64,000 nt of DNA from Leptogorgia sarmentosa (GCA_964658305.1 OZ210885.1:25606001-25670000); one strand, 5' to 3'. Positions 5,936 to 31,560 are shown, counted from the first letter of the stretch. Notes: generated by a model not told the origin, from the letters alone. Numbers and translations: made by a program.

Positions 5936-6056
5936 TAACTGGAAAATAAAAAAAATTAAAAATTATTTGAAATAAGGGCTAAAGAGGTTGTTCCAGAAAA
6001 GATTTATTTCGTCCATTGGGGATGGATCATAATAAATTTTCATCCAAAGTTGCATA

Positions 6057-7552: not shown

Positions 7553-8074
7553 GGTGTCTGTCCTTTCTTCCGATTGTCGTAATTCTGGGGAACATTACAT
7601 TTTTTTGAGAGGGGAGGAATCAAACCATATTTTTGTATCTGCGCAATGCGCAGTTGAATGTGATTGCAGAATTGAATGTGATTCACAATTTTATACCAGC
7701 GCCTGGGGTGCTAGTGGTTTGAATATTTAAAATAAACGCATGCATATTGTCATCGAGACGTGAGCTATTCCCTCAGGTTATGCGCACACTGTGAGGGAAA
7801 TTTCTCGCCTGCCAAAATGATCAAACATGTTGAATATGATGCGCCGATGGCACGCATGCAAATAGCGCAGAAAACGACACTGCACACCGAGGTAATAGCT
7901 TACGCCAATGGTCAGGACTTACTGTTAGCTCAGCTGATTGCTCAAGTGTGCGCCGGGCTTATGATCGTATCACGAAGGCTGTCAAACATGAGCTTTCTGA
8001 ATAATAGGGTTTATTATATACACAAGTGCTGGATATGAGCTATTCTGCAATCTGATTGGCTCCCTACTAGCAGG

Positions 8075-8520
8075 ATATTAGCTCATATCTTGCTAGTAGA
8101 GAAAAACAAACAAAATGGCGGAAAGAGTGAAGCCGGAATTGAAGTTTTCAACAGTTAAAAACGCCTTTGCGATCAATTAAAAGAATAAAATTCAAGAAAT
8201 TTAGTGAGTAAATGTTAATTGTGCAGTTTTGAATCTGGAAAACCGGACTCGACGCTATAAAATTCATCACTTGATTGAGTTGGATCGCTTGTTGCTGTTT
8301 GTTGACATTTTACAACGGTAAAATTTGTATTGTACTTTCAAATGCAGAAAAATACAGATGAAAACTGCTGAAATTTAGAACTAGCTATAGTTTTTAAACG
8401 TAATGTTGACTATTTTAATTCCATAACTGTTGTTTTTACCATGCTTTTTGGTGTGTATTTATCAAGTAAAACTGTTTTTGTAAATATGTCGCATATACAA
8501 CTCGAGTTCGCAGAATAAAT
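8075..8520 (+). repeat. Dispersed repeat, related to 5570-5935
   Basis: Colinear similarity with 5570-5935. Confidence 0.7.
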
Positions 8521-8789
8521 GTTAAATATCACATTTCACTTTGTCATCGTATTACGAAAACATGTATCTTGCCCAGGCTTTTTAAAAACTCGGAACATTA
8601 CATGCGTGATTTTTTTTATTTCGTATCATCGTATCACGATAGCAAGTCGTGTTTCAAAAGTGGACAGGTATTCTATAACCCAGCCGAGATTTGAAAGTTT
8701 GTGCGCTACGGCAGCACTTTTCTTGCAATAGTAACTACTAGTTTATTTTAATATTAGTAATAGAGGTCAGTGGGTGTACACGGTCATGA

Positions 8790-8900
8790 TGTCGAATGAC
8801 ATATTGCCGAATGACATATATTGCCGAATGAAATGTTGCCGAATGACATGTTTCCGAATGATGTACAGTGCAACATTTCTTGCCGAATGTATGTATCGGA
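8790..8900. repeat. Short tandem array of TGCCGAATGA-containing units
   Basis: About 6 diverged units with a CGAATG core. Confidence 0.7.
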
Positions 8901-9443
8901 ATAACAAAATATGTATAAACAAAACAAACCATCGAATATTGACACTAAAAACGCGCAATATTAAACATGGCCAAACTTTCATTTATTCTCTCTTTATATA
9001 CAAAATGAAGAGCAGCTAAATGAACCTCATTGGAAGCATCTAGAATACCTGACTCTTCCATGTAGTAAAACAGACGATAAAACAAACTGGTAGAACCAGA
9101 GAACACATATTTCCACAACCTCTCGATTCTCTGGTTATGTATGCTACGACCATGCTATGTGACTGCCTCTGTTTGGTCCACGTAATGGGTAGGTTAACAT
9201 ATACCAGGCAACATCAACATTCTCGCCTCCTTTGTCGGAACGGACCCGGGAAGGTAGCCCATACTGAGCCACTGCATTCTCAAAATGAGTGAAAACTGTG
9301 GAAGCTTTGTTATTGGTGGAACAGGACAAATATAAAATCATATGTGAAAACCCATCAATTGCCCCATGAATCACAAACCTCCATCCATCATTTAATAGAA
9401 TTTAATGGTTATTTTCTTTTATTTACTAAACCTCAACACCCCT

Positions 9444-9624
9444 TGTTACGATAAATTTGTATTATATTTTAGTTTGTTACATTGGGTACCCTGTGCAGGG
9501 GTCAGCGGTTATATATATATATTCGGAAATCAACAACCGCCATTTTGTTTTGTATTTTTGTATTGCATGATTCAGTGTAATAAAGCCTTAAATTACTGGC
9601 AATCGTTCATATAATTTCTCTACA
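9444..9624 (+). repeat. 5' LTR of Gypsy-1
   Basis: TGTTACG...CTCTACA, with a TATA-rich tract and AATAAA. Confidence 0.95.
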
Positions 9625-9642
9625 ATTTATTACACTGAATCA

Positions 9643-12600
9643 ATGGATAGAGTTCTTCGACCTGAACGACTAGATATTGATCCAAACGACAATTCAGCCG
9701 CAAAAGAATGGTTACACTGGGAACGGACTTTCGCTAACTTCCTATCAGTATTGCCACAAGAAGACCTTAATAAGCTCTCTGTTCTCGCTAACTTCGTCTC
9801 ACCTTCAATCTTCCAGTACATTGAGGACTGCCGGGAATATGATGAAGCCATTCAAACACTGCAAGCACTTTTTGTAAAGCCCAGAAATGAAATCTTTGCT
9901 CGTCATGTCCTCGCCACTCGAAGACAACAACCCACTGAAACACTCGATGAATACCTGCAAGCCCTTAAGACCCTTAGCAAGGATTGCAATTTCAAGAATG
10001 TCACAGCCAACCAGTATTGTGAAGAGAGTATAAGGGATGCATTTATTGCAGGTCTACAGTCGAACTTGATACGACAGAGACTGTTGGAGCACAAAACCCT
10101 TGATCTCAAGACAATGTTTGATCAGGCCAGGGCCTTGGAATCCGCCATGCGTAGTTCGGAGTCATACACATTACCTCCACAGCCTATTAATGCAGCAGTC
10201 CCTTCTAGTTCCCAAGCTTGCTCTCCTAGCCCTACAGAATTGCCTGATTCTGTCGGTACCCTAGCTGCAGTAGCATCTGAAGGCCCCAGTTGTTTCTTTT
10301 GTGGAAACAGCAAACATCCTCGTTCAAAGTGTCCTGCTCGTGAAGCTATTTGTCTAAAGTGCCAAAAGAAAGGTCATTTCGCAAAAGTGTGTCGTGGAAA
10401 GCCAGTGCAACCTAAAGATAAAGTGTCAGCTGCGGCTTGGTCACCAACTCTCGCAACCGTGCCAAGCCCTACCTCACTCTCAAAATCATTGGCATCTGTG
10501 GACATCAATGGATTAAAAGTAAAAGCTCTTATCGACACCGGAAGTACTGAAAGTTTCATTCACCCAAGTCTCGTAGAGAAGGCAGCGTTAATAGTTCACC
10601 CTTCTTCTAGCACGGTATCCATGGCGACCTCCCTATCATCAGCTAAAATAAGTGGGACCTGCACTGTTGATCTTTCATACCAAGAGCGACGTTATGAAAA
10701 CCTACATTTGTCTGTACTACCGGGACTTTGTGCTGATTTGATACTTGGTCTTGATTTCCAGACACGACATGAAAGTGTAGTGTTCAAGTATGGAGGCTCT
10801 GAACCTCCACTGTCAGTATGCAGCTTCAGTACCCTTGACATCGACCCACCCCAACCATTCGCAAACCTGATGCCAGAGTGTCATCCAATCGCCACCAAGT
10901 CCAGAAGATACAGCCAGGACGATTCTGAATTCATTGACAAGGAGGTGACAAGGCTCCTTGCAGAAGGTATCATCGAACCAAGCCACTCACCCTGGCGAGC
11001 TCAAGTCGTCGTCACCAAGGACGATAATCACAAGAAGAGGTTGGCGATTGACTACTCTCAGACTATAAACCGCTTTACCATCCTTGACGCCTTTCCATTG
11101 CCAAATATAAGTGAAATGGTTAACAAGATTGCCCAATACAGGGTCTTTAGCACGATCGACCTTCGGAGTGCCTACCATCAAGTACCTTTAAAGGACGAAG
11201 ACAAGCCCTACACAGCCTTCGAGGCCCGTGGTAACCTCTACCAGTTTACACGTCTACCTTTTGGTGTCACTAACGGCGTCGCTTGTTTCCAAAGGGAAAT
11301 GGTCAAGTTTGTAGAAGAGAATCATCTCAAGGCAGTTTTTCCTTATCTAGACAACATCACCATCTGCGGGAAAGATCAGAAAGACCACGACGAAAACCTG
11401 AAGGAGTTCCTAGAAGCTGCAAAACTTAAGAACATTTGCTACAATGATGAAAAGAGTGTCTTCTCTACCTGTCGCCTACCCTTACTTGGATATGTCATCG
11501 AGGAAGGTAACATCTGCCCCGATCCCGAGCGGCTACGTCCCCTACGTGACCTTCCCATCCCGCACGATTCCAAGTCACTCAACAGATGCATGGGATTGTT
11601 TTCCTATTATTCACAGTGGATTCCTGAATACTCGGACCGCATCAAACCTATCACAAGCTGCAAGTCGTTTCCTCTCTCACAGGAGGCTATTCAAGCATTC
11701 CAAAACCTAAAGAAAATGGTAGAAGAGGCCCTCGTGGGTGCCATCGATGAAAGTGTCCCATTTGAGGTCGAGACAGATGCTTCGGAGGTAGCACTGGCAG
11801 CCACTCTTAATCAAAATGGAAAACCAGTAGCCTTCTTTTCACGAACTCTCCAAGGCAGTGAGCTCAAGCACGCATCTGTAGAGAAAGAGGCCCAAGCCAT
11901 AATAGAAGCTGTGAGACATTGGAGACATTTCCTAACTGGAAGGTATTTTACGCTAAAGACCGACCAAAAGTCTGTGGCCTACATGTTTGACCAACGTCAC
12001 AAAGGAAAGATAAAGAACGACAAGATTATGAGGTGGCGGCTAGAACTGTCCTGTTACAGCTTCGACATCATCTACCGTCCAGGCAAAGAAAATATTCCTC
12101 CTGATACTCTGTCAAGAGCCACTTGTTCTGCTGCAACGGATGAAGATTCCTTGTACAAGCTACATGTGTCGCTGTGTCACCCCGGTATCACCAGGCTTCA
12201 CCATTTTGTACGAACCAAGAACCTTCCTTATTCTTTAGATGACATCAAACGTGTTATAAGTAGATGTTCCGTGTGTTGCGAATGTAAGCCTCAATACTAC
12301 AAGCCGGAGAGGGTTCCACTTATCAAAGCCACGCAGCCTTTTGAGAGAATCAACGTTGACTTCAAGGGGCCTCTACCTAGCTGTAATGGCAACCGCTATT
12401 TTCTCAATGTTATAGACGAGTATTCAAGATTCCCTTTTGTATTTCCTTGCCCAGACGTCTCGACATCTACTGTTATCAAGTGCCTAACTTCGCTTTTCTC
12501 CCTTTTTGGAATGCCAGCGTATGTACACTCTGATCGGGGAGCATCATTTATGAGCAGCGAGCTCCAAAGTTTTCTGGCAGAGAAAGGAGTGGCCACAAGC

Positions 12601-13179
12601 CGTACCACCAGTTACAACCCTCAAGGTAATGGACAGGTTGAGAAGTACAACGGTGTAGTCTGGAAGGGCATCACAATGTCTCTAAAGTCCAAGAATTTGC
12701 CAATCAAGTATTGGCAGGAAGTTCTTCCAGAGGTATTGCATTCTATTCGCTCCTTATTGTGCACTGCAACCAATGAGACCCCTCACGAGCGTTTATTTGG
12801 TTTCTCCCGAAGATCTTCATCTGGCCACTCCATTCCCACATGGCTTGCTACACCCGGTCCGGTTCTACTCAAGCGACATGTTCGTCAATCCAAGACTGAG
12901 CCCTTAGTAGGGGAAGTAGAACTACTACAAGCGAATCCCCACTACGCCCATGTACGCTACCTTGACGGCAGAGAGACCACAGTTGCAACGAAGCACCTTG
13001 CCCCTAAGGGACACGAAGGATCTCCCCAAGCATCTAAGGAAACGGCCTTACCCTTACCTGAGATCCCACCACCTACTACCACTGAGACAGAACCTCAACC
13101 GCCCGTGGCAAGTGATGTACCACAACCATTGCGACGTTCAGAGCGGGTGCGCCGCCCAGTAGACAGGCTTAACCTTTAA
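9643..13179 (+). CDS. Gag-Pol polyprotein, 1178 aa (zinc knuckles, protease, RT, RNase H, integrase)
   Basis: CLKCQKKGHFAKVC knuckle, LIDTGS protease, LPFG and YLDN RT motifs, ETDAS RNase H, HHCC and D-D-E integrase, in Gypsy domain order and uninterrupted. Confidence 0.97.
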   Translation: MDRVLRPERLDIDPNDNSAAKEWLHWERTFANFLSVLPQEDLNKLSVLANFVSPSIFQYIEDCREYDEAIQTLQALFVKPRNEIFARHVLATRRQQPTETLDEYLQALKTLSKDCNFKNVTANQYCEESIRDAFIAGLQSNLIRQRLLEHKTLDLKTMFDQARALESAMRSSESYTLPPQPINAAVPSSSQACSPSPTELPDSVGTLAAVASEGPSCFFCGNSKHPRSKCPAREAICLKCQKKGHFAKVCRGKPVQPKDKVSAAAWSPTLATVPSPTSLSKSLASVDINGLKVKALIDTGSTESFIHPSLVEKAALIVHPSSSTVSMATSLSSAKISGTCTVDLSYQERRYENLHLSVLPGLCADLILGLDFQTRHESVVFKYGGSEPPLSVCSFSTLDIDPPQPFANLMPECHPIATKSRRYSQDDSEFIDKEVTRLLAEGIIEPSHSPWRAQVVVTKDDNHKKRLAIDYSQTINRFTILDAFPLPNISEMVNKIAQYRVFSTIDLRSAYHQVPLKDEDKPYTAFEARGNLYQFTRLPFGVTNGVACFQREMVKFVEENHLKAVFPYLDNITICGKDQKDHDENLKEFLEAAKLKNICYNDEKSVFSTCRLPLLGYVIEEGNICPDPERLRPLRDLPIPHDSKSLNRCMGLFSYYSQWIPEYSDRIKPITSCKSFPLSQEAIQAFQNLKKMVEEALVGAIDESVPFEVETDASEVALAATLNQNGKPVAFFSRTLQGSELKHASVEKEAQAIIEAVRHWRHFLTGRYFTLKTDQKSVAYMFDQRHKGKIKNDKIMRWRLELSCYSFDIIYRPGKENIPPDTLSRATCSAATDEDSLYKLHVSLCHPGITRLHHFVRTKNLPYSLDDIKRVISRCSVCCECKPQYYKPERVPLIKATQPFERINVDFKGPLPSCNGNRYFLNVIDEYSRFPFVFPCPDVSTSTVIKCLTSLFSLFGMPAYVHSDRGASFMSSELQSFLAEKGVATSRTTSYNPQGNGQVEKYNGVVWKGITMSLKSKNLPIKYWQEVLPEVLHSIRSLLCTATNETPHERLFGFSRRSSSGHSIPTWLATPGPVLLKRHVRQSKTEPLVGEVELLQANPHYAHVRYLDGRETTVATKHLAPKGHEGSPQASKETALPLPEIPPPTTTETEPQPPVASDVPQPLRRSERVRRPVDRLNL

Positions 13180-13271
13180 AGGACGGAGAGAACTTTACTT
13201 TGTTAAGTTTGAACGTTCAGAGCGGGTGTGCCACCTAATAGATAGACTTAACTTTTAAAGGACGGGGAGAA

Positions 13272-13452
13272 TGTTACGATAAATTTGTATTATATTTTAG
13301 TTTGTTACATTGGGTACCCTGTGCAGGGGTCAGCGGTTATATATATATATTCGGAAATCAACAACCGCCATTTTGTTTTGTATTTTTGTATTGCATGATT
13401 CAGTGTAATAAAGCCTTAAATTACTGGCAATCGTTCATATAATTTCTCTACA
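13272..13452 (+). repeat. 3' LTR of Gypsy-1
   Basis: Copy of 9444-9624, preceded by PPT AAAGGACGGGGAGAA. Confidence 0.95.
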
Positions 13453-14279
13453 CCCCTCACCCGGATCTGGTAAGCAGCAATGAAAATATCCTAGTGTCGC
13501 CTGTTGTGCATCTCCTGCTTGTGCACCTAATTATCAATTTTTAGAAGTGGAAAACCCATAGTTTGCACAACATTAATGTCATGTGCATCATATATTAGTA
13601 GCTTACCTGATCAATTTGTGGTTGCCGTCAATATGCCAAAGTGCTAGAGGAGATGAAACTGAATAACTTCTACAATTTATCACATTCAACTCTAGTGCTC
13701 TTGTTTGCTGTACTCTGTGACCTTGAGAAGCTAGATAACCCATCATTCTTTTTTGACCAGTGTAAGGATGAGTTCTTAATACTTCCCTTACTGCTGCTAT
13801 TTGCCTAACAGTAAACCGTCTTTCCACAAGAAAGTTCAACTGTTCATAAGGTATATTAATCCTTGGTCTGCCTAGACTGCCTGTAAAGATAACTTCTGGG
13901 CCAACATTTATACCTTCTGAGCTCGATTAATCAAAGCTTCGGTAAGAAGATCGATAACTTTGACAATCAACAAACCCACACTGGTAGTATCTTGAAACGA
14001 CAGTGAATAGCCATTCTAGTCTAAATAAAACACTTTCCTGACATTCAGATTCTTCACCGCGAGCTTCGAGTTGATGCAGAATGTTTAAAAGACAACATCT
14101 AATGCGATTTCTTACGAACAGCCTTTCCTGCAAATTCTCCTCGATTTGGGTACAAATTCGCGACAGTATTTCATCATTTCTGGGGTTTTTTGCAAAATTT
14201 GCGGGAGTGCTTCCACACAAAAAAATTAATTTTCTTCTATGTACTAAAAATGTGTTACTGAGCGTCATGAACTGTATGA

Positions 14280-14490
14280 CTAAGCACACATAATACGAAA
14301 CGGCATAATGAAATCTCAACTGGCATAATGAAATATCAACTGGCATAATGAAATATAAACTGACATAATCAAATATCAAGTTACACAATAAAATACCAAC
14401 TGGCATAATGAAATAATATCAACTGACACAATAAAAAGCCAAATGACATAAGGAAATGTCAAACGGTAAAATATAATGCGACGCTGCACA
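14280..14490. repeat. Tandem ~20-bp subterminal repeats, probable end of the first IS3EU-like element
   Basis: Repeated AACTGGCATAATGAAAT units just upstream of the transposase, resembling the subterminal arrays of the element at 24451-30174. Confidence 0.6.
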
Positions 14491-14559
14491 TCAGAATAGC
14501 AAACAGTTAAATATACTGTAAATTTGAATTTTGGCAGAAATCACCCCTCATACATGAGA

Positions 14560-15480
14560 GCCTCTGCCACGAACCTGAAAAGCCCCTCTAGAACCTCTTG
14601 AAGGATAAGGACTGTAACGTTGGGCACGTCCGCGATATGGAGTGAAACTCCGACACACTTTGAGCTTATTCAACTCATTGATCTCCTTCACACGCTTAGC
14701 AGTGTTACCACCACATAAAATTCATCTGCAGAACTTGTGGAACTACATAAACCTTTAGGGAACTCTGGTTTAAACTGACGGCGCATAGCCTCTTGTCGAC
14801 GCAAATTTAAGTCAAAATTTGCTGTCATGGCTAAAGTGATGCCATCAAGACATGTAGTCAGCACAGCTTTATCGGCATTAGTAGCTAAAAGGGTGTTTCC
14901 ACCTCCAGTTGACAATTTATCGAACTCAAGAGAAGAGTCTGAACAGTTTGGAATTTAACGTCAGTAACTCTAGCTTTGCCCGGAATTTCATTCCATATGC
15001 TTTGTTCACACTTGGGCAAACGCACTTCAACATTTTCTGGTCTATAATGATGTTTCATAATAGACTTTGACTGCTCCTGAGTAATTCTTTGTAATTGTAA
15101 TTTATTAATAATACTAGCAATTTTCCCATTAATTTTGGGGCCATTGACCTCATCGTCAAGCTCCAAGTTGGCTCGCATATTGCAAAACATCATCATCATG
15201 CTCATCTGTTAAATATCTGCTAAAATATTAATGTTCTGTGGGTTGTCATCAAATTCATCAAACTCATTGACTTCATCAGGCTCAAACTGTTGGGTAAATT
15301 GTTGAAAATTATTATTCAAGCGATCAAGACTCACCAAAATAGCTTGACTCGTCGAACCCTGTTCAATGTTTCCATGATGTCCATTATCTTCCCGAAATGA
15401 AGTGAGATTGTGCGCTGGCTGATCTGCTGGCTGTGTTTGATCTTGTGTGCTCGCACTGGAGTCACCAGCCTTGGACATGT
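14560..15480 (-). pseudogene. DIRS-type retrotransposon gag-like remnant
   Basis: RPENVEVRLPKCEQSIW...DVKFQTVQTLLL...LNLRRQEAMR resembles DIRS ORF1; contains frameshifts. Confidence 0.6.
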
Positions 15481-15624: not shown

Positions 15625-18600
15625 TGTAATAATACCGAATACAAGATGGCGGTATAACATGTTTATTGCAAATCCCAGCCCTCTTATTTATACTATTTGC
15701 AATTACAGCACAGGTAACCCAAACATATATTGTTACACCTCCTTTCTAAGTCTAATAACATTACAGTATTAAAGTTCTAAATATAAAAATTGTCCATACA
15801 TGTCAATATAAGCTACTACTAAATTTTTTTTTGTTTTTTTTTAAATAATAATCTAAAGAAAGTCAAGACATATACCTGGCAGGTCTTCTAATGACTCTGC
15901 CACTAACTTTACTTACAACTGGTGATTTCACTAACGTCACATTAGTTTCTTCTTGTATACTGTTGCCACTTGTTTCAATTTCATTGTCACCACATACTCC
16001 CACGGTATCATACTCACTATAAACAGGTTCATCCATATCCATTGTACTGGTCTTCTCTGGACTTGAACGAATTTCTTCTGAAGTCTTTAGTAGATGTTTT
16101 CTATTCCTCCGGTATTCTTTGTTATTTGCGGTCACCACAAAGGATCTAGGTTCTCCTCGTTTAGATTCTCCCACTAACCTGGCTTGTTCCCAGGTGTTTC
16201 CGCATCTCATCCTCACTGTATCTCCTTCCTGTAGCGGTGTTAAAGTTTTACTTCCTCGATCAAAGTATTTCTTCTGTTTGTTCTGCTTTTCTGTCAACAA
16301 TTGTTGAACCCTTTCTACATCATATGCCATAGGCTTTAACAAGGACTGCTTTATAGGTATAAGTGTTTTAGTACAACGGCCCATTAATAGTTGCATCGGT
16401 GACAAACCAACCCCCTGTATTGGAGTATTTCGCAATTCCAAAATTGCTAAATGAGGATCGCTACCATCATCACAAGCTTTCTTCAGCAACTTCTTTGGTG
16501 TCTGTATAGTTCTCTCAACAAACCCATTACTTTGTGGAAAAGTTGGTGATGATGTGACATGCTGAAAAACTCTTTACTGGCAAACTCCGGACCATTATCC
16601 GTATAAAGAATCTCTGGAAGTCCATATCTGGTCAGGTGTTGTTTAAGAATGTTCACTACCGTATTACTTGTACTGTCTGCAACTCTAGTTAATTCAAAGT
16701 ATTTTGAATAATAGTCCACGAGAACTAAATATTTGTCTTTACCTAGTACAAACATGTCAGCAGCCAAAATCTGCCAAGGCCGGTCAGGCACTTGATGCGG
16801 CATTAATGGCTCTTTTACTTGCTTATTTCTATGCCGATTACAAACTTGACATTTGGCGACTCTATCTTGAATTTGCTTCGTAATACCTGGCCAAAATAGA
16901 CAATCCCTTGCCCGATTAAGACATTTCTCCATTCCCAAGTGACTACTATGTATCCTGTCTACCATTTCTGGATGAAGAGCAGATGGTGTAATTAGGCGAT
17001 CACCTTTTAACAAGTGTCCATCACAGATACATAATTCATCACTGAAATTCCAATATTCTTGTATGTCTGGATCTATTTCCGATATTTTATCTGGCCAGCC
17101 TAACAACACTGTTTCTGTAAGTTTTGCCATAATGGGATCTCGATCTAGTTCCCTCTTAAACTCTTCTGCTTTTTCTTGGGATATTGGTACCATTAAATGA
17201 ACTTCGAATTCTTCCTTATCATCTATACACTTCGGTGAACTGTTCTGACTAGCATGACTAAGAGTATTGGCAATATACAAGGTTTCACCTGGTACCTATT
17301 TTACCTTCAAATCATATTGCTGTACTTTAAGCATCATTCTCTGTATACGTTGTGGTGCTTTACAAAGTGCCTTTTTAAACAAACTTTCCAGAGGCTTATG
17401 ATCTGTCTCTACTGTCACAGTGTTTCCATAAATATATTGATGGAACTTGGTGGCACCGAAAACAATTGCAAGCATCTCCTTTTCTATTTGGGCATAGTTA
17501 CATTCTGCCCGATTTAGAGCTCGTGATGCATAAGCTACCGGTTGACTTCCTTGTAACAAACAAGCTCCCAAACCTTCAGAAGATGCATCTACTGAAATTG
17601 TAATGTCAGAATCAAGGTCAAAATACTTCAACACAGGTGATTGAGCAATCAACGAAATCAGAATATCATATGCTTCTTGCTGTTTCTCCATCCAGTGCCA
17701 TGCCACTGAACACTCCATCAACTCTCTAAGTGGTCTACTTATATCTGCTAAGTTTGGTATAAACTTATTCAAATAGTTAACCATTCCCAAAAATCTTTGT
17801 AGACTCTTACGATCCTGAGGTACTGGCATATCTATGGTAGCTTGAACTCTGTCTGGATTTGGTTTCAGACCATCACTCCCAAATATATGTCCAACATATC
17901 TCACTTCCTTCTTGTTAAATTTACACTTCTCCCTGTTAAACCTTAAATCTACTTCAGCTGCTCTTTCAATTACTTTCTTTAATTTTTCATTATGCTCTGT
18001 CTCATCCTTACTCTCATCCTTGTCACATCCCTCAATATCTTCAAAAGTCTGTGCCAGATTTCTTTGGAAAACCTCTGGTGCCGATACTATTCCAAATGGC
18101 AATCTTTCAAATTTATGCCTTCCGAAAGGGGTATTAAAAGTCGTCAACCATGTGCTTTCTTCTGTCAGCTTTATTTGATAAAACCCAGACGTGGCATCCA
18201 ATGTGCTAAATATGTTTGCATTCCCCAGGCTAGCTGCTACCTCTTCCACAGTTTTTAACGGATAATGCTCTTGTCGAACCAGTTTGTTCAAATCCACTGG
18301 ATCCAGGCAAATTCGTACATCGCCATTTGGTTTCTTTACCACCACCATTGGATTAACCCATTTTGTGGGCTGTTCAACTTTTGTTATAATGCCCCTTTCT
18401 TCCATTCTATTCAACTCATCCTTTACTTTATCCTTTAACAGATGTGGAATTCGTCTTGGTGGATGAATTGTTGGACAGGCATGTTCCTCGAATTTAATTT
18501 CATATTCTCCTGGCAGAGTACCAATTCCTTCAAATAAATTTTCAAATTTCTCCAAAATTTCTTCAGTACTTTGGTCATTATTTGATGCAATGTTATGAAC

Positions 18601-20241
18601 TCTCTTAATTAAATTCAACTCAATACAAGATGGCAGTATAACATGTTTATTGCAAATCCCAGCCCTCTTATTTATACTATTTACAATTACAGCACAGGTA
18701 ACCCAAACATATATTGTTACACTTACCATGCTCAGCGTAAATTTTCAAAAAACAATCTTGAATCTACTACTGAAATGCTACTTGACAATCCTAATACTGG
18801 TATAACATCCGAGTTTACGACATGTACATCAAGCAAGTAATACTTGTCCTTGCATTCAACTGCAATTGTGGCTTAATAACATGTTTATTGCAAATCCCAG
18901 CCCTCTTATTTATACTATTTACAATTACAGCACAGGTAACCCAAACATATATTGTTACACTTACCATGCTCAGCATAAATTTTCAAAAAACAATCTTGAA
19001 TCTACTACTGAAATGCTACTTGACAATCCTAATACTGGTATAACATCCGAGTATACGACATGTACATCAAGCAAGTAATACTTGTCCTTGCATTCAACTG
19101 CAATTGTGGCTTTGCCTACTGCCTTAATCTCATGCCCTGAATATGAAATCAATTTAGCTCCAGTTTTATGATTGTATTCAATTCCAACTTTTCGACACAG
19201 GCTCACTGGCACAACATTACACTGGGCCCCTGTATCAATCTTGAATGAGATGTTATGCTCGTTTACTTTCAACTTTACACACCAGTCGTCCTGCTTCGCT
19301 TCCTCTGATTTAACTGTTCCAATAAAAAAATGTTGGTCTTGTTCTTCATCCGTCTTATCAATAAAATTTACCTCTTTTGCTTTACACATACTGGCAAAAT
19401 GATGCAACTTTTTGCATCTATTGCAGTTCTTACCATATGTTGGGCAACGACCTTTCCTATGTCGATAACCACAGTAGTTATAAATATTATCACCAGTTTT
19501 ATCCCTTTTCTCTTCTCTCTTTTCCTTACCTATATTGCTTTGACCCGCCTTATCTTCAACCCGCACTGCATGCACAGACTTTTCATCAGTTAGTTCCTTC
19601 AATTGGAAGGCACTTATTTCAGATGCTCTACAAATATCTACACATTTCTCCAAGCTTAAATCAGATTCCCTAATTAATGATCCCGCATACAATTCGATCA
19701 CGAATTAATCCATCTTTAAGATCAGCAAACTCACATCTAGAGGCTCTATTTCTTAGTTCAGTAACGTATGTATCTATTGTCTCACCTTCCTGTTGGTTTC
19801 TTGTAAAAAACGAATGTCTATCAAATGTTAAATTTTTTCTTGGATTACAATATCTTTCAAATTTCTCCATTATTTTATCAACTTTGACATCATCTCCTTC
19901 TGTGTCCCACTGGAATGTATTATACACCTCCAAGGCTTCAAAACCAGCCACATGTAGCAACGCCATTGCTTGAACTTTTCCGTCTTTTCCATCCAGACTT
20001 GATGCTATCCGATATATTTCAAACTGCTGCTTGAACCTCCTCCAATTCTCAGCCAAATTTCCTGTTAATATCAAAGACTTCGGAGGATCTAACTTATCCA
20101 TATCTAGTTTAATTTACTCCTGACACCATGTAATAATACCGAATACAAGATGGCGGTATAACATGTTTATTGCAAATCCCAGCCCTCTTATTTATACTAT
20201 TTACAATTACAGCACAGGTAACCCAAACATATATTGTTACA
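15625..20241 (-). mobile_element. Gypsy LTR retrotransposon (Gypsy-2), full-length but decayed and internally rearranged
   Basis: 113-bp LTRs at 15625-15737 and 20129-20241; TSD CTTAC; PBS TGGTGTCAGGAGT (tRNA-Leu-like); PPT AGAAAGGAGG. Confidence 0.95.
15863..20101 (-). pseudogene. Gag-Pol of Gypsy-2 with frameshifts, stops and deletions
   Basis: Gag MDKLDPPK, protease KIDTGA, RT LPFG with the YxDD region deleted, RNase H VDAS, integrase TDNGP. Confidence 0.9.
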
Positions 20242-21596: not shown

Positions 21597-22225
21597 CAGT
21601 GCTCTCACTTTTAAGGAATTTAGGTTTTTGAGGAACTTTTTAAGGAATATCCGAAACATTTTGTCCTGGACTGAAACATTGGACGGAGGATAACCAAGCT
21701 CAGCAAATGAGATTTAAACTTAAAGTAGCAACACACATAAGTGACATAATTACATATATTCGTTCTGTATGTACATACGGTACATATGCTACATATGGCT
21801 GTCTTTTAATTAAAATTCTCAAATTCTTTGTCAGCATATGCTGTTTCTTTTCGAATCTGTTCATGCAGCAAATATTAAAAAAACGAAACAAAACTAAACA
21901 ATTCACTTAGCTTGCTGTCCAAAACACCCATATGCAATATATAGAAACATATACAAAAATCCAAACATGGGCTTTCTAGCTTGATAGTTCTTGCATTATA
22001 AGTTCATGTAATTCGTTGTCAATAGCGTTGCTTTTAACAGCTTTCAAATGCCGCAAAATTTCCACATTCATGCTAAGGTTATGAGCAGGACAAGAGTCCA
22101 CTCTTAGACCTTCCTTAGTGTGGATAACACCGACCAAACTTTCCCGCTTCAACGAGTTTCTAGTGTCAGTTTTGACAAGTTTCAAGACACTAAACAACCT
22201 TTCCACTGTAGCATTTGATGCAGGT
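21597..22225 (-). mobile_element. hAT 3' remnant (dimerisation domain and possible terminus)
   Basis: SNATVERLFSVLKLVKTDTRNSL; candidate CAGTG terminus at 21597. Confidence 0.6.
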
Positions 22226-22229
22226 ATTG

Positions 22230-22350
22230 TTTCAGTTCTTTATGTGAACAGAACAAGTTAGTGTTGTCTGCAAATAAATGAAAACCAAAAGCTTCGGTGC
22301 AATTACAAAAATGATTTATATATAACAAAAATAATAACAGACCAAAAATT
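22230..22350 (-). pseudogene. LINE RT fragment
   Basis: GLLLFLLYIN...FHLFADNTNLF. Confidence 0.6.
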
Positions 22351-23379
22351 GTTAGTACAGTGTATATTGAGTGTGTCAGTTCAGAACATGGTGGCATTCC
22401 ACCAGAGACGTAGCCCCCCTGGCGAAATTCTCAACCCCCTCTGGTAAAATTCTGACTAACAAAATATTTTCATTATTTTCTCATGCTATACGTCATGCAA
22501 ATATTATATTTGTTAGATGTTTTGAGATTTGGGCATATTTCAGCATTGCTTCAATGACAATGATTTGAGGCTTATATGTATTGATCAGTTATCCCCGAGC
22601 CACAACGCGTGGCTATTTACACCTGGGTAAAGCGGAGTTGAAAGTCAGTCATTTTGCCACCATTTTGGGGTATTTTTGTAAGGGTGGTCATCACTGATCT
22701 CAAAAATATGGCAGACTGTCATGAAGGGCGAACACTAAAGGCTTTACAAAAGTGGAAAACAAAGACAAAGACTATTGCTGCAAGACTATAAAAGACTCCT
22801 GAGAAGACATTAATGACTTTAAATCCACGAGAAGCGACAATGGATTGAAATAGTGTATGTATTGCTTGCATATAAAATTCTCGCGTATTTATATGAATGG
22901 CTGGCTTAACCGCATTCAATCTGTTTACAGTTTAATTTAAGAAATTCTACCTTGTGTAAATGTAAGACTGCCTCAATTTAGTATTTCAACATATTTTAGA
23001 ACGAATTTTAGATGGAAAAGAATATGAGCCAATATTGGCTTGAAGTAGTTTTATTTTAAAGACGAAACTTGTATGAAATTAATACAATGCCTGGGTACTT
23101 CATGTTGTTAGAATATAGGTGCATTGAGTTGAATGTAGTCTGATACGTTTGTAAGACGACTGAGGGGTTGCTGCATGTGTGTATTTCTAGTATAGATAGA
23201 TCAGTGGCTACAATATTACGAATTCTTCCCTTGATTTCCGAACAGTGACCGAAGTGCAAACATGTGCAAAATGTAAATATCAAATTTGGCGGACGATTTG
23301 TAAATTTGCTCAATACTTCTATTTGGCATTTGCATTTCGATTCGACATGTTAAACTGGATCATCGTCAGCATCTCAGTC

Positions 23380-24360
23380 TCAGCATTATCAAGACCTTTG
23401 CTTAACAGTTACCCGAAAAAGAGGCAAGGGAGTCGAGAAAGATGTTTTCGCCCCACTTGGTATGACTCATTTTCATGGCTAGAATATTCTGAGAATATTG
23501 ACGTGTGTCTTTGCTATCCATGCAGAATTTTCGCCAAAGACGCCGCAGTTAAAGAGAAAACCTTCATTAAAGCCGGATTCTCAAATTGGAAAACTGCGTT
23601 GCAAACTGATAGAGGATTTAACAAACATCAGAAGTCGGACATACATATTTGAGCAATGGCTAGTTGGAAGGAGAGGGAATATCAAGAGTCGGGGTCAAAC
23701 GGTGCGAAACCTTATCCAACTAAACCCAGAACACAAAATATGGTTAAAAACTGTTTTTAAGACAACAAAATATCTGGTCGCTAACGGAATGTCATTCTGT
23801 GGAGATTTATGGAGAAGACAGATTTCAACAACCAAGTTTCTGGCAGGCTATATCTAAATAACTTTACTGACCTTCTCTTCACCCAAAATCTCAATTTGGA
23901 AGAGATAGCAAAGCAATTGCCGCAAAACGCGAAGTACACCTCACCGAAGATGCAAAATGAAGTTATAGAGACCTTGTCAGAGATTGTCAGTGAAACGGTG
24001 GCTAATGAATGTAAGAAAGCTAGACTAGTTTGATGATGGATGGAACTACTGACCACAATAACAGCTACAGTACTTTAACATATCCAAATACTATTTAGTA
24101 CTATTCACTACTAAGTATATTTTAGTTAACTTAATCCACATAACAATATATTTTTATTCATAAATTTAGGGAAATGGAAGGTATTACACTTAGATACTGG
24201 AATGATAGCTGTGGAGGAGTTCTGGAGCACATAATAGACTACAAAATGGCAGAAGATAGGAGTGCCAAAGGTCTTTTAAGTTTAGCTCTATTAACTCTTG
24301 AAAGATGGGATAGTATCTAACACATTTGATGGGGCAAGTGTTATGTCTGGTCAAAAAGAT
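23380..24360 (+). pseudogene. hAT transposase fragments (TTF zinc finger, ZMYM1-like)
   Basis: RCFRPTWYDSFSWLEYS...CYPCRIF, NAKYTSPKMQNEVI, TFDGASVMSG; many frameshifts. Confidence 0.8.
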
Positions 24361-24823
24361 AGGTTTGTCTTACTGAAACTAAATTTACAGTCAAATGTCT
24401 GTTATATATGGTTACATTTTTGTATCTGCACAGCAGACATATTGCTATCGTACGGTGGCCCAGAAGGCTCAAACAAATACAAATATAAAACATCGCTAAT
24501 AAATGTTTGACAACACATGCAAGTACCTCACAACACAAATACAAATGTAACACAACGCAAATAAATATTTGACAACAAATGCAAGTACCTCACAACACAA
24601 ATACAAATGTAACACAACACAAATGAGAATATATTTAACGCTAATAAATATTTGACAACACATGCAACAAATACTCTGCACTTTGCAAAGAAAACAAAGA
24701 AAACCTACGCGAAAAGTCGCAACGCATGAAAATTGAAGATCACAACGCAACATGGTTTACTGCCACAATGGACATGGTTTACACAATGGAAGTAATGTGT
24801 CCCATTGTGCTTTCCCGATTTTA

Positions 24824-24891
24824 GGGGGTGTTTATATCGAGGCGAGCCAGCCCGAGTACCCGAGCTGGCTCGCCTCCATATAAACACCCCC
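24824..24891. mobile_element. 68-bp Harbinger-type mini-MITE
   Basis: GGGGGTGTTTATAT...ATATAAACACCCCC hairpin flanked by TTA on both sides. Confidence 0.75.
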
Positions 24892-25156
24892 TTAGTTGCA
24901 TAGCATATGGTCTACTCGAATGGCGACGATCAGGTAAAGTGAAAGCCTGGTATGCAAAATTTAAAATTGCAGGAATACGTTCACTGTAAATCTCGGAAAT
25001 TTCCCCTTCGCTTTCGCCCGCGCATCGATTTCAGTGGCTGTCTTCATACCAGATACCTTCTAGCGCAATTTCGAATTTATTCCTTCGAAGAGAGTTTCCA
25101 CGTACTAAGCTAGGGCTGCGTATTAATATTAATGATTGAAGTTATACTTAATCGAA

Positions 25157-28105
25157 ACGTTTTGTGGTAAATGTGGCGTGGAGATGCCAGAATACTCGAA
25201 ATTTTGCTGGAAATGTGGAACGTCAATAAAAGGCGAAGCAGAAGTAAACACGAATACTGCGAAATCGTTATCATTTGAGGCTTTCAGGAAGAGGAAAGAA
25301 AGCGAAAGAACAGGCAGATTTCAAACCAAAAAGTCCAAAGTTACAAATAATTCAACAACGAAGCAGACAGGAAAATTGAACCAAGAAGTGAGCATTAATG
25401 TCAGATTTAAGAAATTCGAAGACAATAAATTCAAAAAATGTAGAGGGCGGACGCTTCCTGTGAAAGTACCTATAGCAGCTGACAGAAAAACAATTTTAGA
25501 AAAAAGCGTGCTGAAACATGCAAACCACTTCAGGGACGTTCATAGCAATTTTGATTACATACCTCTTTACCCTGACAGTAGCGAGATTGTGCATTTACCA
25601 GGGACTAACGAAGACTTTGTTCTCAATAAATACAAGGAGGAGGTAGGAAGGAACTATAATAGAATAAATCTTTTTATCGCTACTGAAACTGACTATCAGC
25701 TCAACAGATTATCAGAACTTGGCGATCTGCTTGAAAAAGAGTGATCTGATAGTTATAGTCTTGATGAAAATGTGGAACCCCCAATTTCTTGTACAGAAAA
25801 ATGGAAACAAACAACTTTGGATGGTGTGATTAGACCAAATGCAAGGGCGACCACAAGTACCGGTAGCAATTCAAATTCCAGTTTTCCTATGGCTTCATCA
25901 TTTGGTGAGAACATCAGTACTTTAATGGATGAAAGAGAAGAACACAACATTCAATGCCCAACATGCTTTCAATACTTTTCTGTTCAAGTAATAGCAGAAC
26001 ACGCTGATGCGTGTGTTGATGTCTGGATTGGTGATGTAGATGACAGTGAAAATGACACCGACAGTGATCTCCCTAATCCTTTGCTAGATGCCCATACAGT
26101 TGATGTTTCTACTGAAATTACCACCACAACTTCGTTGAAAACCGTTGCTCAGAAATTAGCTGATGAACATATTAGTAAAAAAGATCAGAAAAGATTGAAT
26201 GTGCGAAGAAAGCATTTATGGGTCGATTTCAAGCAAGCTTGTGTGAGGTATAAGTTGGATCCAAGCACACCAATTCGAATTGTTTTCTTAGGAGAGCCCG
26301 CAATAGATGATGGTGGGCCAAAAAGAGAATTCTTCTCAGGTATTTATGTCATTTACTGAATGAAGATTTCAGTGTAAAGTACAATAGGGTGTCCACAAAT
26401 CTTGTATAATAATTTCAAAAAAGAGAGGCTGCATTCCAACCATAATTGATATTCATATTTCATGTTTTACCTAGAAATATTGGAGCATGTGGAGAGGAAA
26501 CTATTCTGCAATGGAAAGCCGATTAGTTCCATTATTGCACTTCAGAATGAAGATTTTAGGCTGGCAGGAGAAATAATGGTGATGTCCATTCTTCAAAATG
26601 GACCAGCTCCAATGCTCTTGAATCAAACTGTGTTTCATTTCATGACCAACCAGAATTTATCAATTGAAGACTTACCCGAATCAGCACACAAGACAGTTGC
26701 ACGTCAGGTCCGGATAATACGAAATTGAAACACACTGAATATTTGAATTAATATACTGTAGTATTCGCCGTATTTGTTCGAATAAGCGTTCGTCAAATTT
26801 TCTCGTCTAACATGTGGCGCTTAATCCAGGGCGGCGTTTAATTGAAAAGACATACACTTAAGTTATTCCCATTTTATATTTTTTGGCCGAGTGTACAATT
26901 TTTGCCTGAAACAAAACTACTGTATGCATGTACGCATTGTCCTTCCCTAGCATACTGTCTCCTCCAAAAGACAATGGCTGAAGTTTGTTGTCTTGCAATA
27001 ATAATGTAATTCATAGTAACACTTTTTCAAACAAACCACCAATATAATTTGATGGCAGTTTCTATTAGAACAAATACGGCAAGTCCAAAAGTTCTTACGA
27101 CAACATAAACTCTTGGGTAACATAATTTGTCCATTATATTAATAGATTATGGCAGCACAATCTGATGATGAACTCCATGCTGTTCTTGTTTTGGATGATG
27201 TTTTAACCATTTTGGAAGAAATCGGTTACACTGGTGTACCTCATCACGAGACTCTAAAATCAGCATCAGACATCATCCAGTGAGTAAACTGTTACACACT
27301 TTAAAATGAACTATGTATGAACTTTATTGGAGTGCTTATGAAACAGATCTTGTTATAAATTTGTTACAAATCACAATTACATTATTTTTATTGAAACTAT
27401 TACCTTTTTTATAAAAGGTCTATTTGTGTCAAAAGTCAAATTGGACCTTCGATGCCACAGGTGATGCAACTTCAACATGGGCTTGCCCGTTGCGGAGTTA
27501 TGGATGCAGTTAGAAAGTGTCTCAATCTTTGGGCATTGGGTTAGGGTTAGGTAAAATTCAGTCACCAGATGATTTTCTTGATGAATTGGAAGTGAAATAC
27601 AGCCAATCTCAGCTGTTAAAGGAAAAGGAGATCGATGTCTTCAAGTATTTTTGTGAATTTGTTCAATCTATTGGTTCGTCTGATGGTGCAGAAGGTTCAG
27701 GTACTCTGATTTATTTGTCAAATATTTTTGTATATTTCTACAAATGACTTGTAATATTTCAAAGTGACTTCTAATATCTGGAAATTCTTATGTACATTGT
27801 ACTATTGAATACGTATTATTTCACTGGTTTATTATTCGTTGGATAAATGTTTTTCCATTGTAGAGATAACTTTAACCCACTTACTGAAGTGGATGTCAGG
27901 TTGCAAGACCACACCAGTTCTTGGGTTCGCAAAAAGGAAGTCTTTGATGTTCGTTCATGGATGCAAAGAAGATTGCCGCTGCCGTCCTACAGCCTCAACT
28001 TGTGACTTGTCCCTTAAATTACCAGTCCATATCAGTGATGAGGAAGACATGAAATATATCATGCACTCTGCCCTGAAAGATTCGTGTGGCTTTGGTTTAT
28101 TGTAG
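25157..28105 (+). pseudogene. Multi-exon HECT E3 ubiquitin ligase (zinc ribbon, UBZ-like finger, HECT) carried by the transposon
   Basis: FCGKCG..FCWKCG; CPTCFQYFSVQVIAEHADAC; FLGEPAIDDGGPKREFF; C-lobe RPTASTC..LKLP ending GFGLL. GT-AG introns. In-frame TGA at 25742-25744; probable start codon mutated to ACG. Confidence 0.88.
26768..27079. mobile_element. MITE in a HECT-gene intron
   Basis: Imperfect TIRs CCGTATTTGTTCGAATA / TATTAGAACAAATACGG. Confidence 0.6.
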
Positions 28106-28516
28106 ACGTAGTTTGACTGTCTTGGGTTGTGCTGACCTGGACCGCACCTCATACTGAACCATGTGTTTATATTGTATTTGTTTTTTCTTCTTATTTGCTA
28201 CAAAACGACTGTATTGTTGAGTTGTCATTCTTAATATTACTGTATACCTCTGTTTAGAACGTCCCATGTAGAAGTCGTCGTTCGTTTATTACTTGTGTCA
28301 CCATATACGTGTAACCTAAGACCTATAAAATCAATTTCGGTAAAATGAAAAGCATTGTAATTTGTATTGATAAAGGATTAGCTTGACAAACTCATACACA
28401 TGATAATAATACACATGATTCTAGTTCGGTATCATGTAACCTTGACTAGTTAAGAAAAATTTTGTAGTGGCAAGTGCTTTAATAACTTTCGTTCAGTTTT
28501 GTATTCAAATCCTTAA

Positions 28517-29752
28517 TTAAGACGGGTGTCCGACCAGGATTAAATACTCAAAGAGATCACATGGTTCTGTGTGATTACTTGGATAATGTAGTCCTTCATT
28601 ATCCATAATGTAATGAAAGTATTCTTGGTAAATATTCATGTGATTGTCGTCATCGTTGTCAATTTGCGTGTGGACTTCCATGGCATCAGCTTGTTCCTCT
28701 GTCACATGGGTTTTACAGTCTACAGGACCAGATCGGTGTGGAAGGTAGAACAATACGTCCGGTACACCAGGAACTGTACCATATTTGGAACGTCTTATTC
28801 TGTGTGTATTCCAATGGGCTTTTACTTGATCCAGGTCTTCCTGTAAAAGTGAGTGAAAACAGAACCAAAGGCATTCAAGGTGAAACTCTGAACCAATATT
28901 AAGCACTTCTGTTGCAGAGATTTCTCTGAAAAAATCAATCCACCATGAGGATCTTCCTCTTCTAAAATAAGACCACCATGCTTCTATTCGCTGGTTACTG
29001 GGAGATGTTCACATATATGATCCGGCAAACTGATCATTGCCATGCTGACGGAAAAAAGCTTGGATTGCAGCCATTGTACCATTTTCTGTTCCACAATCAG
29101 TCCGAACAATCATAGGGCAACCAGAATGTTCCTTTACACATTCAAGATAATACTTTGCTGGTATTTCAGGCTTGTTGTTTGACCTTGTAAGCTCTAACCA
29201 CAGTATTTTTCGGCTATACCCGTTGATGGCTCCATGTATAGGAAAGCCGTATGGCTTGAGCTTATCGTAGCCTATATATAAATTTAAACAAATGATCGAT
29301 GCAAATAAAAACATATCATATGAACAATCAAATATAGCCAATTTACGAAACCAACTATCGGCGTGCCAGCAAAAATTGGGACCAAAACTAATATATTTTC
29401 GCCTTCTAAGTCGACTTCTTCGTTGCAATGTTCCTTCCGGGTCTAGTTCTTTTAGAATTCTTTCAACATCTTTCCCGGGAACATGAACGTTATGACACAG
29501 TCTCAGCGAATGCCAAACTGCTCTGTATCCACGAAGTTGACCAGGTCCAGGTATTTCATTTTGAATTAACTCCCGTAATTGATTTTCATCAATACTCTCA
29601 CCCCTTCTGCTCAATCCGTAATCTTGAAGTCTTCTTTTCAAAGTGCTGAGACTCATATGTATCCCATGCTGACAACTCAGTAAATCGACAATGAACTTGT
29701 TTTCGTAACCGCGCTGAAAATACTGTTTTATCAATTCTTCCTCGTCCGCCAT
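28517..29752 (-). pseudogene. IS3EU-like DDE transposase (one intron at about 29272-29356, premature stop at about 29009)
   Basis: HTH SLSTLKRRL, WHAD/GYDKLKPYGFPIHG, RTDCGTEN, NQRIEAWW, WNTHRIR. Confidence 0.9.
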
Positions 29753-30399
29753 TTTCAATTCACTGGCTGTGGTGTTAGTTACTTCCGTTGTGTAAACCAT
29801 TTCCGTTGTGGCAGGAATTTGTGCTTGCGTTGTGATCTTTAATTTTCATGCGTTGGGACTTTTCGCGTAGGTTTTCTTTGTTTTCTTTGCAAAGTGCAGA
29901 GTACTTGTCAAATATTTATTAGCGTTAAATGTATTCTCATTTGCGTTGTGTTACATTTGTATTTGTGTTGTGAGGTACTTGCACTTGTTGTCAAATATTT
30001 ATTTGCGTTGTGTTACATTTGTATTTGTGTTGTGAAGTACCTGCATGTGTTGTGAAATATTTATTTGCGTTGTGTTACATTTGTATTTGTGTTGTGAGGT
30101 ACTTGCATGTGTTGTCAAACATTTATTAACTATGTTTTATATTTGTATTTGTTTGAGCCTTCTGGGCCACCGTACTATCGAGTTGTTAGCTGTTAGCTGT
30201 TAGCTTGCAGCCAATCAGCGAATTCGTTAGTTAAATCTGATTCAATTTAGCCAATAGATGACAACGTAACATTGAGATGATGTAATTCTCACTGGCCCAC
30301 CCGCAAATTTAAGGGAACCAATGTGAAGGTGTGCAAAATACAAAATGGCAGCTGATATAGCTCGCTAAAGAGTGGTGATGTGTTTGATCGTGGATTTTG

Positions 30400-31560
30400 T
30401 TTCGCATGAATATCCAGATAAAAAGAAAATATAATGGTTTGTTTACTTTCAAATAAGTCATGAAGCACTGTCAAGGGCGCTGCGGCATTCAACACATGGC
30501 GTTGAACTTTGGAAAGCTCCTTATCCCAATTCTCTGCCGTTTTCTTATAGGAAGGAGAAATCTGATCTGCTAGGGATTTGTCTAGCTTTGGCATAAGAAA
30601 TACTTCCATGTCTGGGAGAGCTGCTCTTCAAGTATGGTAAAAATTTGAGACAAAGATAAGTTGTGTCGAAACTTATCTCTTTGAACCCCTCTGAGGGATT
30701 TCAACCCAGCGATTCTGCGGTGGGATTAAATAACTGAACCTTTTGGGGTTCGCTGTCATGAGACAAGGCTTTCCCGCTAGCCTCTGGCTATGGTATGGCC
30801 GCCTCGTCCACATTGTTTGTGTTATGCACAGGGTCGAGCGATTTGCTCGTTGTGGGGCTCCGTGGCCATAATTGCAGTCCAAAGGTATTGGACAAGAAAT
30901 GTCGAACCCCTGAACGGGTGAGACCATTATCGACAGTTGATCCTGATATTCGGAGTCGTCTTTGCCAGACAAATGATCAGGAACGAAGTCGTCATGCTCG
31001 AGTGTCACTTGCTCGTTCGAGCGCTCAGCTTGGTTGTTTTGCTTCTCTAACACGCCCAAGCGATTATCCAGGGTCTCCAAGGTGGAGGACATCTGTGTGA
31101 GCTTTTGTAAGAGCTCATTTAAGACCGGTGGATTAACAGTATCCACTACATGGTCACGTTTGTCGCTTGAGCGCAATTTCTTTGAGCGGTGATGTCACTT
31201 TGAACGATGAGTAGAATCCTCCGGACTCTGAGATCTAGACCTTTTCGATGAACTCATAGTAACCTAGTACACGGGGTAGAAAATATACACCAAACAAGAA
31301 GAAAAAACATCAACAAATTTACGCGTAAGGTAGCTAAAACTTACCTGCTGAAAAAATACTGTGTGACTCCGAACGCACCGATGAAAAAAGTCGAAGGTGT
31401 TTGCCAGGGGCTCCTGGTTAGAGGCATAATGCAGGTGCTAGTTCCCACACTTTTTTTGCGATGGCAGCCCCAGTGCTTTTTATGGGTGACTCCGACACCG
31501 GATGGACTACGTCATACCTTAAGTATTCCATACATTTTGACCGGAGAGTGTGAAGTATAA
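30400..31560 (-). pseudogene. Second DIRS-type gag-like remnant with 5' region
   Basis: PKLDKSLA...WDKELSKVQRHVLNAAAPL resembles DIRS ORF1. Confidence 0.55.

Follow-up and report, generated by a model that had tools for sequence, protein, structure and literature searches.

An IS3EU-type DNA transposon of Leptogorgia sarmentosa carrying a HECT ubiquitin ligase gene, and recurrence of the gene pair in related elements

Organization of the Element

The window, that is, the whole stretch of 64,000 nucleotides of Leptogorgia sarmentosa DNA that was analysed (GCA_964658305.1 OZ210885.1:25606001-25670000), contains at 24451..30174 a DNA transposon of the IS3EU/GingerRoot type, which is 5,724 bp long and has the termini TACGG..CCGTA. 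As the original prediction had it, exactly two convergent genes lie between the terminal inverted repeats (TIRs), namely a DDE transposase gene on the minus strand and a spliced gene of five exons on the plus strand, which encodes a HECT ubiquitin ligase and is referred to below as the cargo. The left terminus at 24451 reads TACGGTGGCCC and the right terminus at 30174 reads GGGCCACCGTA. The features of the two ends are as follows.

24445..24450, target site duplication (TSD), left copy, CTATCG, present once in empty copies of the target repeat
24451..24795, left TIR, begins with TACGG and has 62-nt sub-repeats
24823..24892, 70-bp palindrome (inverted repeat I7, 91%), high-copy in the genome with varied flanks
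29767..30174, right TIR, has CCGTA at its end and one more 62-nt sub-repeat than the left TIR
30175..30180, TSD, right copy, CTATCG

The TIRs, 345 nt on the left and 408 nt on the right, show a complementarity of 90-96% depending on the segment. The 20-nt terminal word has no further occurrence within the 64-kb window, with up to 5 mismatches allowed. The accessible text of PMC10045372 defines IS3EU by TA..TA ends together with target duplications of 6 bp, and the window element shares with IS3EU/GingerRoot as described the TA..TA termini, the 6-bp TSD, the long TIRs and an integrase-like DDE transposase. Its TACGG..CCGTA ends agree with the TAYGG..CCRTA of described families, CTATCG is found twice, and both TIRs are longer than 30 bp. 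Termini, TSD, TIRs and transposase motifs all fit IS3EU/GingerRoot, and the family assignment made beforehand, together with the long TIRs and the 6-bp TSD on which it was built, is borne out.

Since the empty copies of the target repeat have a single CTATCG and one contig of run X4 skips 5,730 nt, that is, the element plus 6, the CTATCG duplication was made by the insertion. The single-CTATCG empty copies are observed as loose ends of contigs in all four runs (4/4), and a second look at X3 and X4 showed them once more. Contig depth beside the left end reaches 6,000-12,000 (runs X1 and X3) as compared with ~80-110 inside the element. The interpretation of the empty sites as an insertion polymorphism was rejected, because the target is a repeat of this depth. 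We also note that the target of insertion (24416-24450 and 30181-30438) is a very high-copy short repeat with a depth of up to 64,000 in X1, and that it sits within decayed hAT-like remains at 23200-24400, as judged by eye; hAT dimerisation domains are located at 478-1536 and 21979-22239. The palindrome in the left part of the transposon has a contig depth of ~5,100 versus 82 in the element interior, with loose ends at 24894, and is likely a small separate element inserted there.

Further copies were sought in the contigs of sequencing runs of this genome, which show presence and not absence. The element interior was recovered as one 4,738-nt contig with zero differences (run X1), and in a second study the element is also found in the contigs of three runs. 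Related ends with different flanks are short only, one in X1/X3 and two loose ends in X5; a near-identical second copy was not seen among these contigs, in which presence and not absence can be read.

Transposase Gene

The transposase is encoded by two exons separated by one 84-nt intron.

29356..29752, minus strand, exon 1, ATG at 29752, HTH-like region and first D (WHAD)
28517..29271, minus strand, exon 2, second D (RTDCGTEN) and E (NQRIE)

The protein aligns with P0001 over 374 residues at 61% identity, and it matches the Pfam families rva_4 (E 1e-9 and 4e-8) and HTH_21, while H2C2 gave no Pfam match. It is an integrase-like DDE transposase with the IS3EU motifs and without the HHCC domain; compared by eye, WHAD, RTDCGTEN and NQRIE correspond to IS3EU-1_DR1p as given in the accessible supplement of PMC10045372. 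One stop interrupts the frame at 29009-29011, next to a short in-frame loss. Among viral contigs, no relative of the transposase or of the cargo was found. A zinc ribbon like that of the cargo (window 25160-25225) begins many related transposases (P0002-P0108; Pfam PF13240, and also profile matches); the window transposase is without an N-terminal zinc ribbon.

Cargo Gene

The five exons of the cargo are joined by four GT-AG introns.

25157..26339, plus strand, exon 1, ACG at the start position, includes the start of the HECT N-lobe
25160-25225, plus strand, zinc ribbon in exon 1
~25382-25687, plus strand, ubiquitin-like (beta-grasp) domain in exon 1
25742-25744, plus strand, stop in exon 1
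~25949-26008, plus strand, UBZ-like finger in exon 1
26475..26707, plus strand, exon 2, HECT N-lobe
27146..27279, plus strand, exon 3, HECT
27418..27700, plus strand, exon 4, HECT, frameshift near 27530-27552, donor possibly 6 nt earlier
27864..28105, plus strand, exon 5, HECT C-lobe, ends with GFGLL
28001-28003, plus strand, catalytic Cys codon (PTASTC) in exon 5

Pfam recognizes Zn_Ribbon_1 (E 7.5e-6) and HECT (E 6.3e-9 and 3.2e-4) in the cargo; the finger matches zf_UBZ weakly, with an E of 0.0096 that is below the cut-off. The zinc ribbon and, by this weak match, the UBZ-like finger of the original prediction are present, and the ubiquitin-like domain, which it had left unnamed, is added to them. 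The HECT region is 67% identical to the octocoral protein P0145 over 351 aligned residues, and the named homologues of the element's proteins are those of coral and octocoral.

The reading frame of the cargo is not intact in the window copy: a stop interrupts it at 25742, exon 4 is frameshifted, and the start codon, ATG in the homologues, reads ACG. Both genes of the window copy are dead, and neither protein is made. The stops in the two genes had been recognized from the start; the HECT domain, which had been called complete, is present over its whole span but is not intact, as the frameshift in exon 4 had been missed. Relatives with intact-looking ligase frames include the protein P0131 and the loci L017, L050 and L077, and in L008 the ligase and the transposase both have long open frames. 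The frameshifted stretch (27537-27550) includes two telomere-like TTAGGG-type units, which may be a matter of chance or a repair scar.

Fold, Catalytic Residues and N-Terminal Domains of the Ligase

The Cys of the HECT C-lobe takes ubiquitin from an E2 and then passes it to the substrate, and the activity requires both this Cys and a Phe four residues from the end. The window cargo has the two residues where they had been pointed out, the Cys in PTASTC, which aligns with PTSHTC of E6AP by way of the homologue P0145, and the Phe at -4 in GFGLL. Among family sequences that cover the column, the catalytic Cys is present in 31 of 32. The Phe at -4 is found in 18 of the 28 readable C-termini of relatives, with Tyr, Met or Ile in 6 more. 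In the otherwise intact cargo of L008 (2349-4481), the frame runs 13 residues beyond the end observed in L010 and L016, so that the terminal Phe would be displaced.

The AlphaFold model of the full-length homologue P0131 (pLDDT 82.6), which is 51% identical to the window protein over HECT, comprises a zinc ribbon together with a domain that spans 69-180, a hairpin-helix finger (256-282) and the HECT domain (310-671). The predicted HECT domain has the bilobed fold, as it aligns with the HECT domain of Rsp5 at Z 22.7 and rmsd 4.5 over 328 residues and with Smurf2 at a Foldseek E of 2.9e-12.

The N-terminal domain of the window protein itself was modelled with a pLDDT of 90.5 and is matched by many ubiquitin-like domains at Z 7-8.8. 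As these beta-grasp matches give no clear best family, the domain is described here as a ubiquitin-like fold. When the sequence of the N-terminal module was compared with solved structures, no match was returned (best E 0.84). A profile of the module matches 1,049 clusters (50% identity) at E 1e-10 or better; the best 150 matches include 143 new proteins, and HECT follows the module in 26 of the 30 that have at least 400 residues. Of 30 long family members, 5 have a CUE or UBZ match. A scan of the window cargo and of 39 family proteins returned no domain of the chromatin-reader kind, save one Myb/SANT fusion.

Recurrence of the Gene Pair

Metagenome loci were retrieved with the transposase alignment, and the best 80 of at least 500 confirmed loci, which form 68 clusters at 90% nucleotide identity, make up the set described here. 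With the homologues of the window as queries, tblastn is positive in 19 of the 80, every one of them downstream and on the opposite strand, and Pfam searches of 63 of the 124 long frames place HECT in 15 loci, 10 above the cut-off. A HECT profile, seeded with 5 proteins and with 11 of the 80 loci, which match by construction, detects a convergent downstream HECT in 34 of the 80 loci (27 of 68 clusters); in two of the positives, L034 and L036, the start of the HECT domain only is present. HECT was found upstream or on the same strand in 0 of the 80 loci, with 71 kb of upstream and 137 kb of downstream DNA searched. Where 1.5 kb or more of downstream DNA is available, 25 of 34 loci are positive, and where 3 kb or more is available, 11 of 13.

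Four of the loci are complete elements with TIRs and a 6-bp duplication, and HECT is situated inside the repeats in three of them (L013, L016 and L074). The fourth, L047 (2.9 kb), has an apparently full-length transposase match and is without HECT. The outcome that the original prediction had named against itself, a lack of HECT in the other copies of the family, was not seen, L047 being the one such case among the four complete relatives. L047 is also one of the nine negatives among the 34 loci whose downstream DNA extends to 1.5 kb or more; the other eight include L003 with a LINE and L011 with a receptor gene downstream, and both element ends were found in none of these eight.

In principle, the window copy could have captured a HECT gene from its host in a single event, as plant GingerRoot elements capture host fragments (accessible text of PMC6839031), or a host gene and a transposase could lie side by side by chance, and the failure to see a near-identical second copy in the contigs of this genome would be in line with it. 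Pairing in a single orientation in 34 of 80 related loci argues against this explanation, as does the HECT C-lobe of L014, the nearest transposase relative among the loci, which is 56% identical to that of the window. Convergent HECT genes inside the repeats of complete elements refute it, and we regard it as extremely improbable. The data support the HECT gene as a standing accessory of the element's lineage, not of every IS3EU.

Kinase-Carrying Clade

A genome collection returned 13 further loci (L081-L093), in which the transposase matches are mostly split by introns. Their prokaryotic origin was rejected on account of these introns, and they are likely host DNA in metagenome-assembled genomes. 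A convergent HECT is present in one of the 13 (L082), and L089 has HECT upstream on the same strand. A convergent protein kinase is observed in six (L085, L086, L088, L090, L092 and L093, from three assemblies), and the remaining five, four of them short, have neither HECT nor kinase. The kinase of L085 is enclosed by repeats that come with a 6-bp duplication (7074-15134). The FastTree analysis, from which L093 was omitted as too short and in which L092 bore the wrong label 'none', reveals that the kinase-associated transposases form a separate, intron-rich clade with a support of 1.0. HECT marks some IS3EU lineages and not all, and ubiquitination is not required by all IS3EU.

Selection and Evolutionary History

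A HECT identity of at least 55% is shared by 18 pairs, of which 8 have saturated silent sites and 3 are identical or close to it, which leaves 7 informative pairs. The dN/dS ratio is below 1 in six informative pairs (0.04, 0.05, 0.20, 0.26, 0.50 and 0.53, each p under 0.01), which represent three independent groups, and is 1.11 in the pair L025/L071. The check for neutral evolution of HECT that came with the original prediction thus speaks for purifying selection in 6 of 7 cases, and with relatives that hold HECT convergently inside their repeats, the proposal that the ligase is dedicated cargo is upheld.

The comparison of HECT and transposase trees, likewise called for at the outset, reveals a weak correlation of distances (Mantel r 0.20, p 0.034, n 17; for the HECT C-lobe, r 0.35, p 0.0002, n 26). 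The two trees have 3 of 14 splits in common and two conflicts at 100% support, and a strict co-evolution of HECT and transposase was rejected on these grounds. HECT domains have moved between transposase clades, with close relatives travelling together.

The N-terminal modules are distributed differently, as judged from the loci long enough to show them. Module A, the zinc ribbon with the ubiquitin-like domain, accompanies a transposase of clade I in 8 of 8 loci, which represent six clusters (the window, L001, L008, L013, L016, L017, L034 and L036), and module B, which comprises a domain that is ubiquitin-like by motif, a coiled coil and a UBX-like domain, accompanies clade II transposases in 5 of 5 (L028, L046, L050, L074 and L077). 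The UBX-like matches are found in four of the five module-B loci, one above the cut-off. Two HECT groups mix the clades, one made up of L017, L050 and L077 and the other of L001, L013, L028, L046 and L074. This distribution fits a putative N-terminal adaptor that is matched to the transposase and a catalytic domain that is exchangeable. A single change on the tree suffices for the match of module and clade, which could also be explained, with no contact between the proteins, by linkage to the adjoining terminal repeat.

HECT swapping between clades, and L047 as a complete element without HECT, would also be expected of a passenger that is spread by recombination and kept for the benefit of the host or for its own, with no role in transposition. 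We hold such a passenger to be quite improbable, since position and orientation stay constant across transposases that are only 33-75% identical, with HECT domains down to 13% identical that still keep the Cys, and since more than 1,000 clusters (50% identity) share the N-terminal module, which is hard to account for unless selection acts on the element itself. The reading that we favour is a dedicated ligase of the element's lineage; for its parts taken all together, namely the anatomy, the recurrence of the pair, the HECT fold in the homologue, the catalytic Cys and the purifying selection, we estimate a probability of about 0.9.

Proposed Function

We propose, at roughly even odds, that the intact ligase ubiquitinates its own transposase complex, which the p97/proteasome system would then remove. 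By established HECT chemistry, the C-lobe Cys would accept ubiquitin from a host E2 and transfer it to the substrate. The N-terminal module, which is the zinc ribbon with the ubiquitin-like domain here and the ubiquitin-like domain, coiled coil and UBX-like domain in the sister clade, would select the substrate, presumably the cognate transposase, and the UBZ, CUE or UBX-like domains would hold ubiquitin or recruit p97. The complex might in this way be cleared off the DNA after strand transfer, or the level of transposase be capped. The removal of MuA by ClpX offers an analogy. A substrate within the element is suggested by modules A and B, which track the transposase clades (8/8 and 5/5) where the HECT groups mix them, and by the UBX-like matches in 4/5 module-B loci and the CUE or UBZ matches in 5/30 long members.

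The HECT domains that cross clades fit a host target equally well. A dedicated ligase might act on a host silencing, chromatin or DNA-repair factor, which would be degraded or re-routed in favour of expression of the element or repair of its insertion, and the pairing and selection data are the same for this possibility. In another clade a kinase occupies the equivalent place, as do an alpha-kinase and TET/JBP in fungal IS3EU, and for the fungal TET/JBP an escape from silencing has been proposed in the accessible text of PMC12730594. The N-terminal module that tracks the transposase clade across many samples is less readily reconciled with a host substrate, and so is the scan for chromatin-reader domains, which gave only the one Myb/SANT fusion among the cargo and 39 family proteins. 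We consider a host substrate plausible, if short of an even chance.

G2E3-Like Genes

The original prediction had further linked the cargo to expanded 'G2E3-like' gene families. Several homologues of the cargo do bear G2E3-like annotation names, and to this extent the link stands indirectly. Neither vertebrate G2E3 nor a named GL-Metazoa sequence is among the cargo homologue matches listed, and vertebrate G2E3 is absent among the 42 matches listed for the HECT region of L077. The three N-terminal RING/PHD-like fingers of G2E3 (zf-HC5HC2H) gave no Pfam match in the cargo and 39 family proteins. According to the accessible text of PMC3673628, the fingers of G2E3 are RING/PHD-like and its HECT is non-functional. 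This is in contrast to the cargo, which has a zinc ribbon, a ubiquitin-like domain and a UBZ-like finger, keeps the Cys, and lies inside a transposon.

Among HECT families, the same source counts G2E3, GL-Metazoa and GL-Bikonta as extremely divergent and attributes the divergence of class IV HECT to a lack of constraint, and PMC2837046 places the origin of G2E3 after the chordate/echinoderm split; transposons are without mention in the accessible parts of these two papers. In the accessible texts of two further papers, 20 G2E3 copies in a hadal sea cucumber were read as an adaptive expansion (PMC9700323), and a G2E3 match was found among copy-number-variable repeats in Cottus (PMC5638112).

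A broader conjecture, which we rate as unlikely on balance, would join these observations. In IS3EU, the place of the second gene might be kept for an enzyme that modifies proteins (HECT, Ser/Thr kinase or alpha-kinase) and has an adaptor matched to its own transposase, by which the transposition complex would be dismantled; the divergent G2E3-like families of animals would be such cargo, their 'expansions' transposon copies, and vertebrate G2E3 would have gained its HECT domain through the domestication of such a cargo gene. If true, this would offer another reading, by way of hypotheses, of the divergence of class IV, the late appearance of G2E3 and the 'G2E3 expansions'.

The window also holds a second, more decayed IS3EU-type element on the minus strand (14418-8996 and 6957-3206), with an rva_4 transposase whose motifs are like those of IS3EU-1_CVi_1p. 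Downstream on the same strand are a piece that resembles the N-terminus of the G2E3-like protein P0215 (34% identity, E 9e-20), a CUE domain at 3909-4208 and, at 3206-3427, a remnant of a HECT N-lobe. The gene order is tandem and not convergent, and the ends were not found within the window. Its P0215-like module also precedes HECT in L089. A recent Ty3/Gypsy LTR retrotransposon (9444-13452), with an open frame of 1,195 codons and 181-nt LTRs that are 100% identical, is situated inside the transposase of this second element, and a second, frameshifted gag-pol region of an LTR retrotransposon was recognized by eye at 15863-20113 on the minus strand.

Relation to Known Systems and Significance

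In the literature, as distinct from the Repbase entry texts, no report was found of IS3EU/GingerRoot paired with HECT. HECT and ubiquitin are unmentioned in the accessible main text and supplement of PMC10045372 and main text of PMC6839031, and the word 'HECT' occurs 0 times in the accessible parts of PMC10045372, PMC12730594, PMC6839031, PMC11934779, PMC3520738 and PMC5753468. As the 2012 meeting report PMC3520738, in its accessible part, tells of DNA transposons with conserved host-derived proteins presented by Kapitonov, Repbase entries possibly already name a HECT cargo, for which we put the chance near one in two.

The accessible text of PMC12730594 describes families of fungal IS3EU in which genes for alpha-kinase and TET/JBP are oriented opposite to the transposase, and these families share with the window element the TAYGG..CCRTA ends, the 6-bp TSD and an oppositely oriented accessory enzyme. 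The window element differs in that it is from an animal and carries a ubiquitin ligase, without TET/JBP or alpha-kinase. Domains of the ubiquitin system on transposons are also found in Helitrons, whose cargo includes VTD and OTU deubiquitinases, the VTDs being active and proposed to protect transposition proteins (PMC9741609, in its accessible part), and in Zisupton, which has an F-box (PMC12062965, likewise). These domains remove ubiquitin or act as adaptors within the transposase frame, whereas the window cargo is a ubiquitin-writing enzyme encoded by a separate, spliced, convergent gene.

The structure and function of IS3EU are called largely unexplored in the accessible text of PMC11934779. 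The window copy is dead and adds one more instance of the gene pair. For the most part, the accessory genes that eukaryotic DNA transposons carry lack an explanation, and with a large family of HECT ligases borne by transposons, the use of ubiquitin by a transposon can be tested directly.
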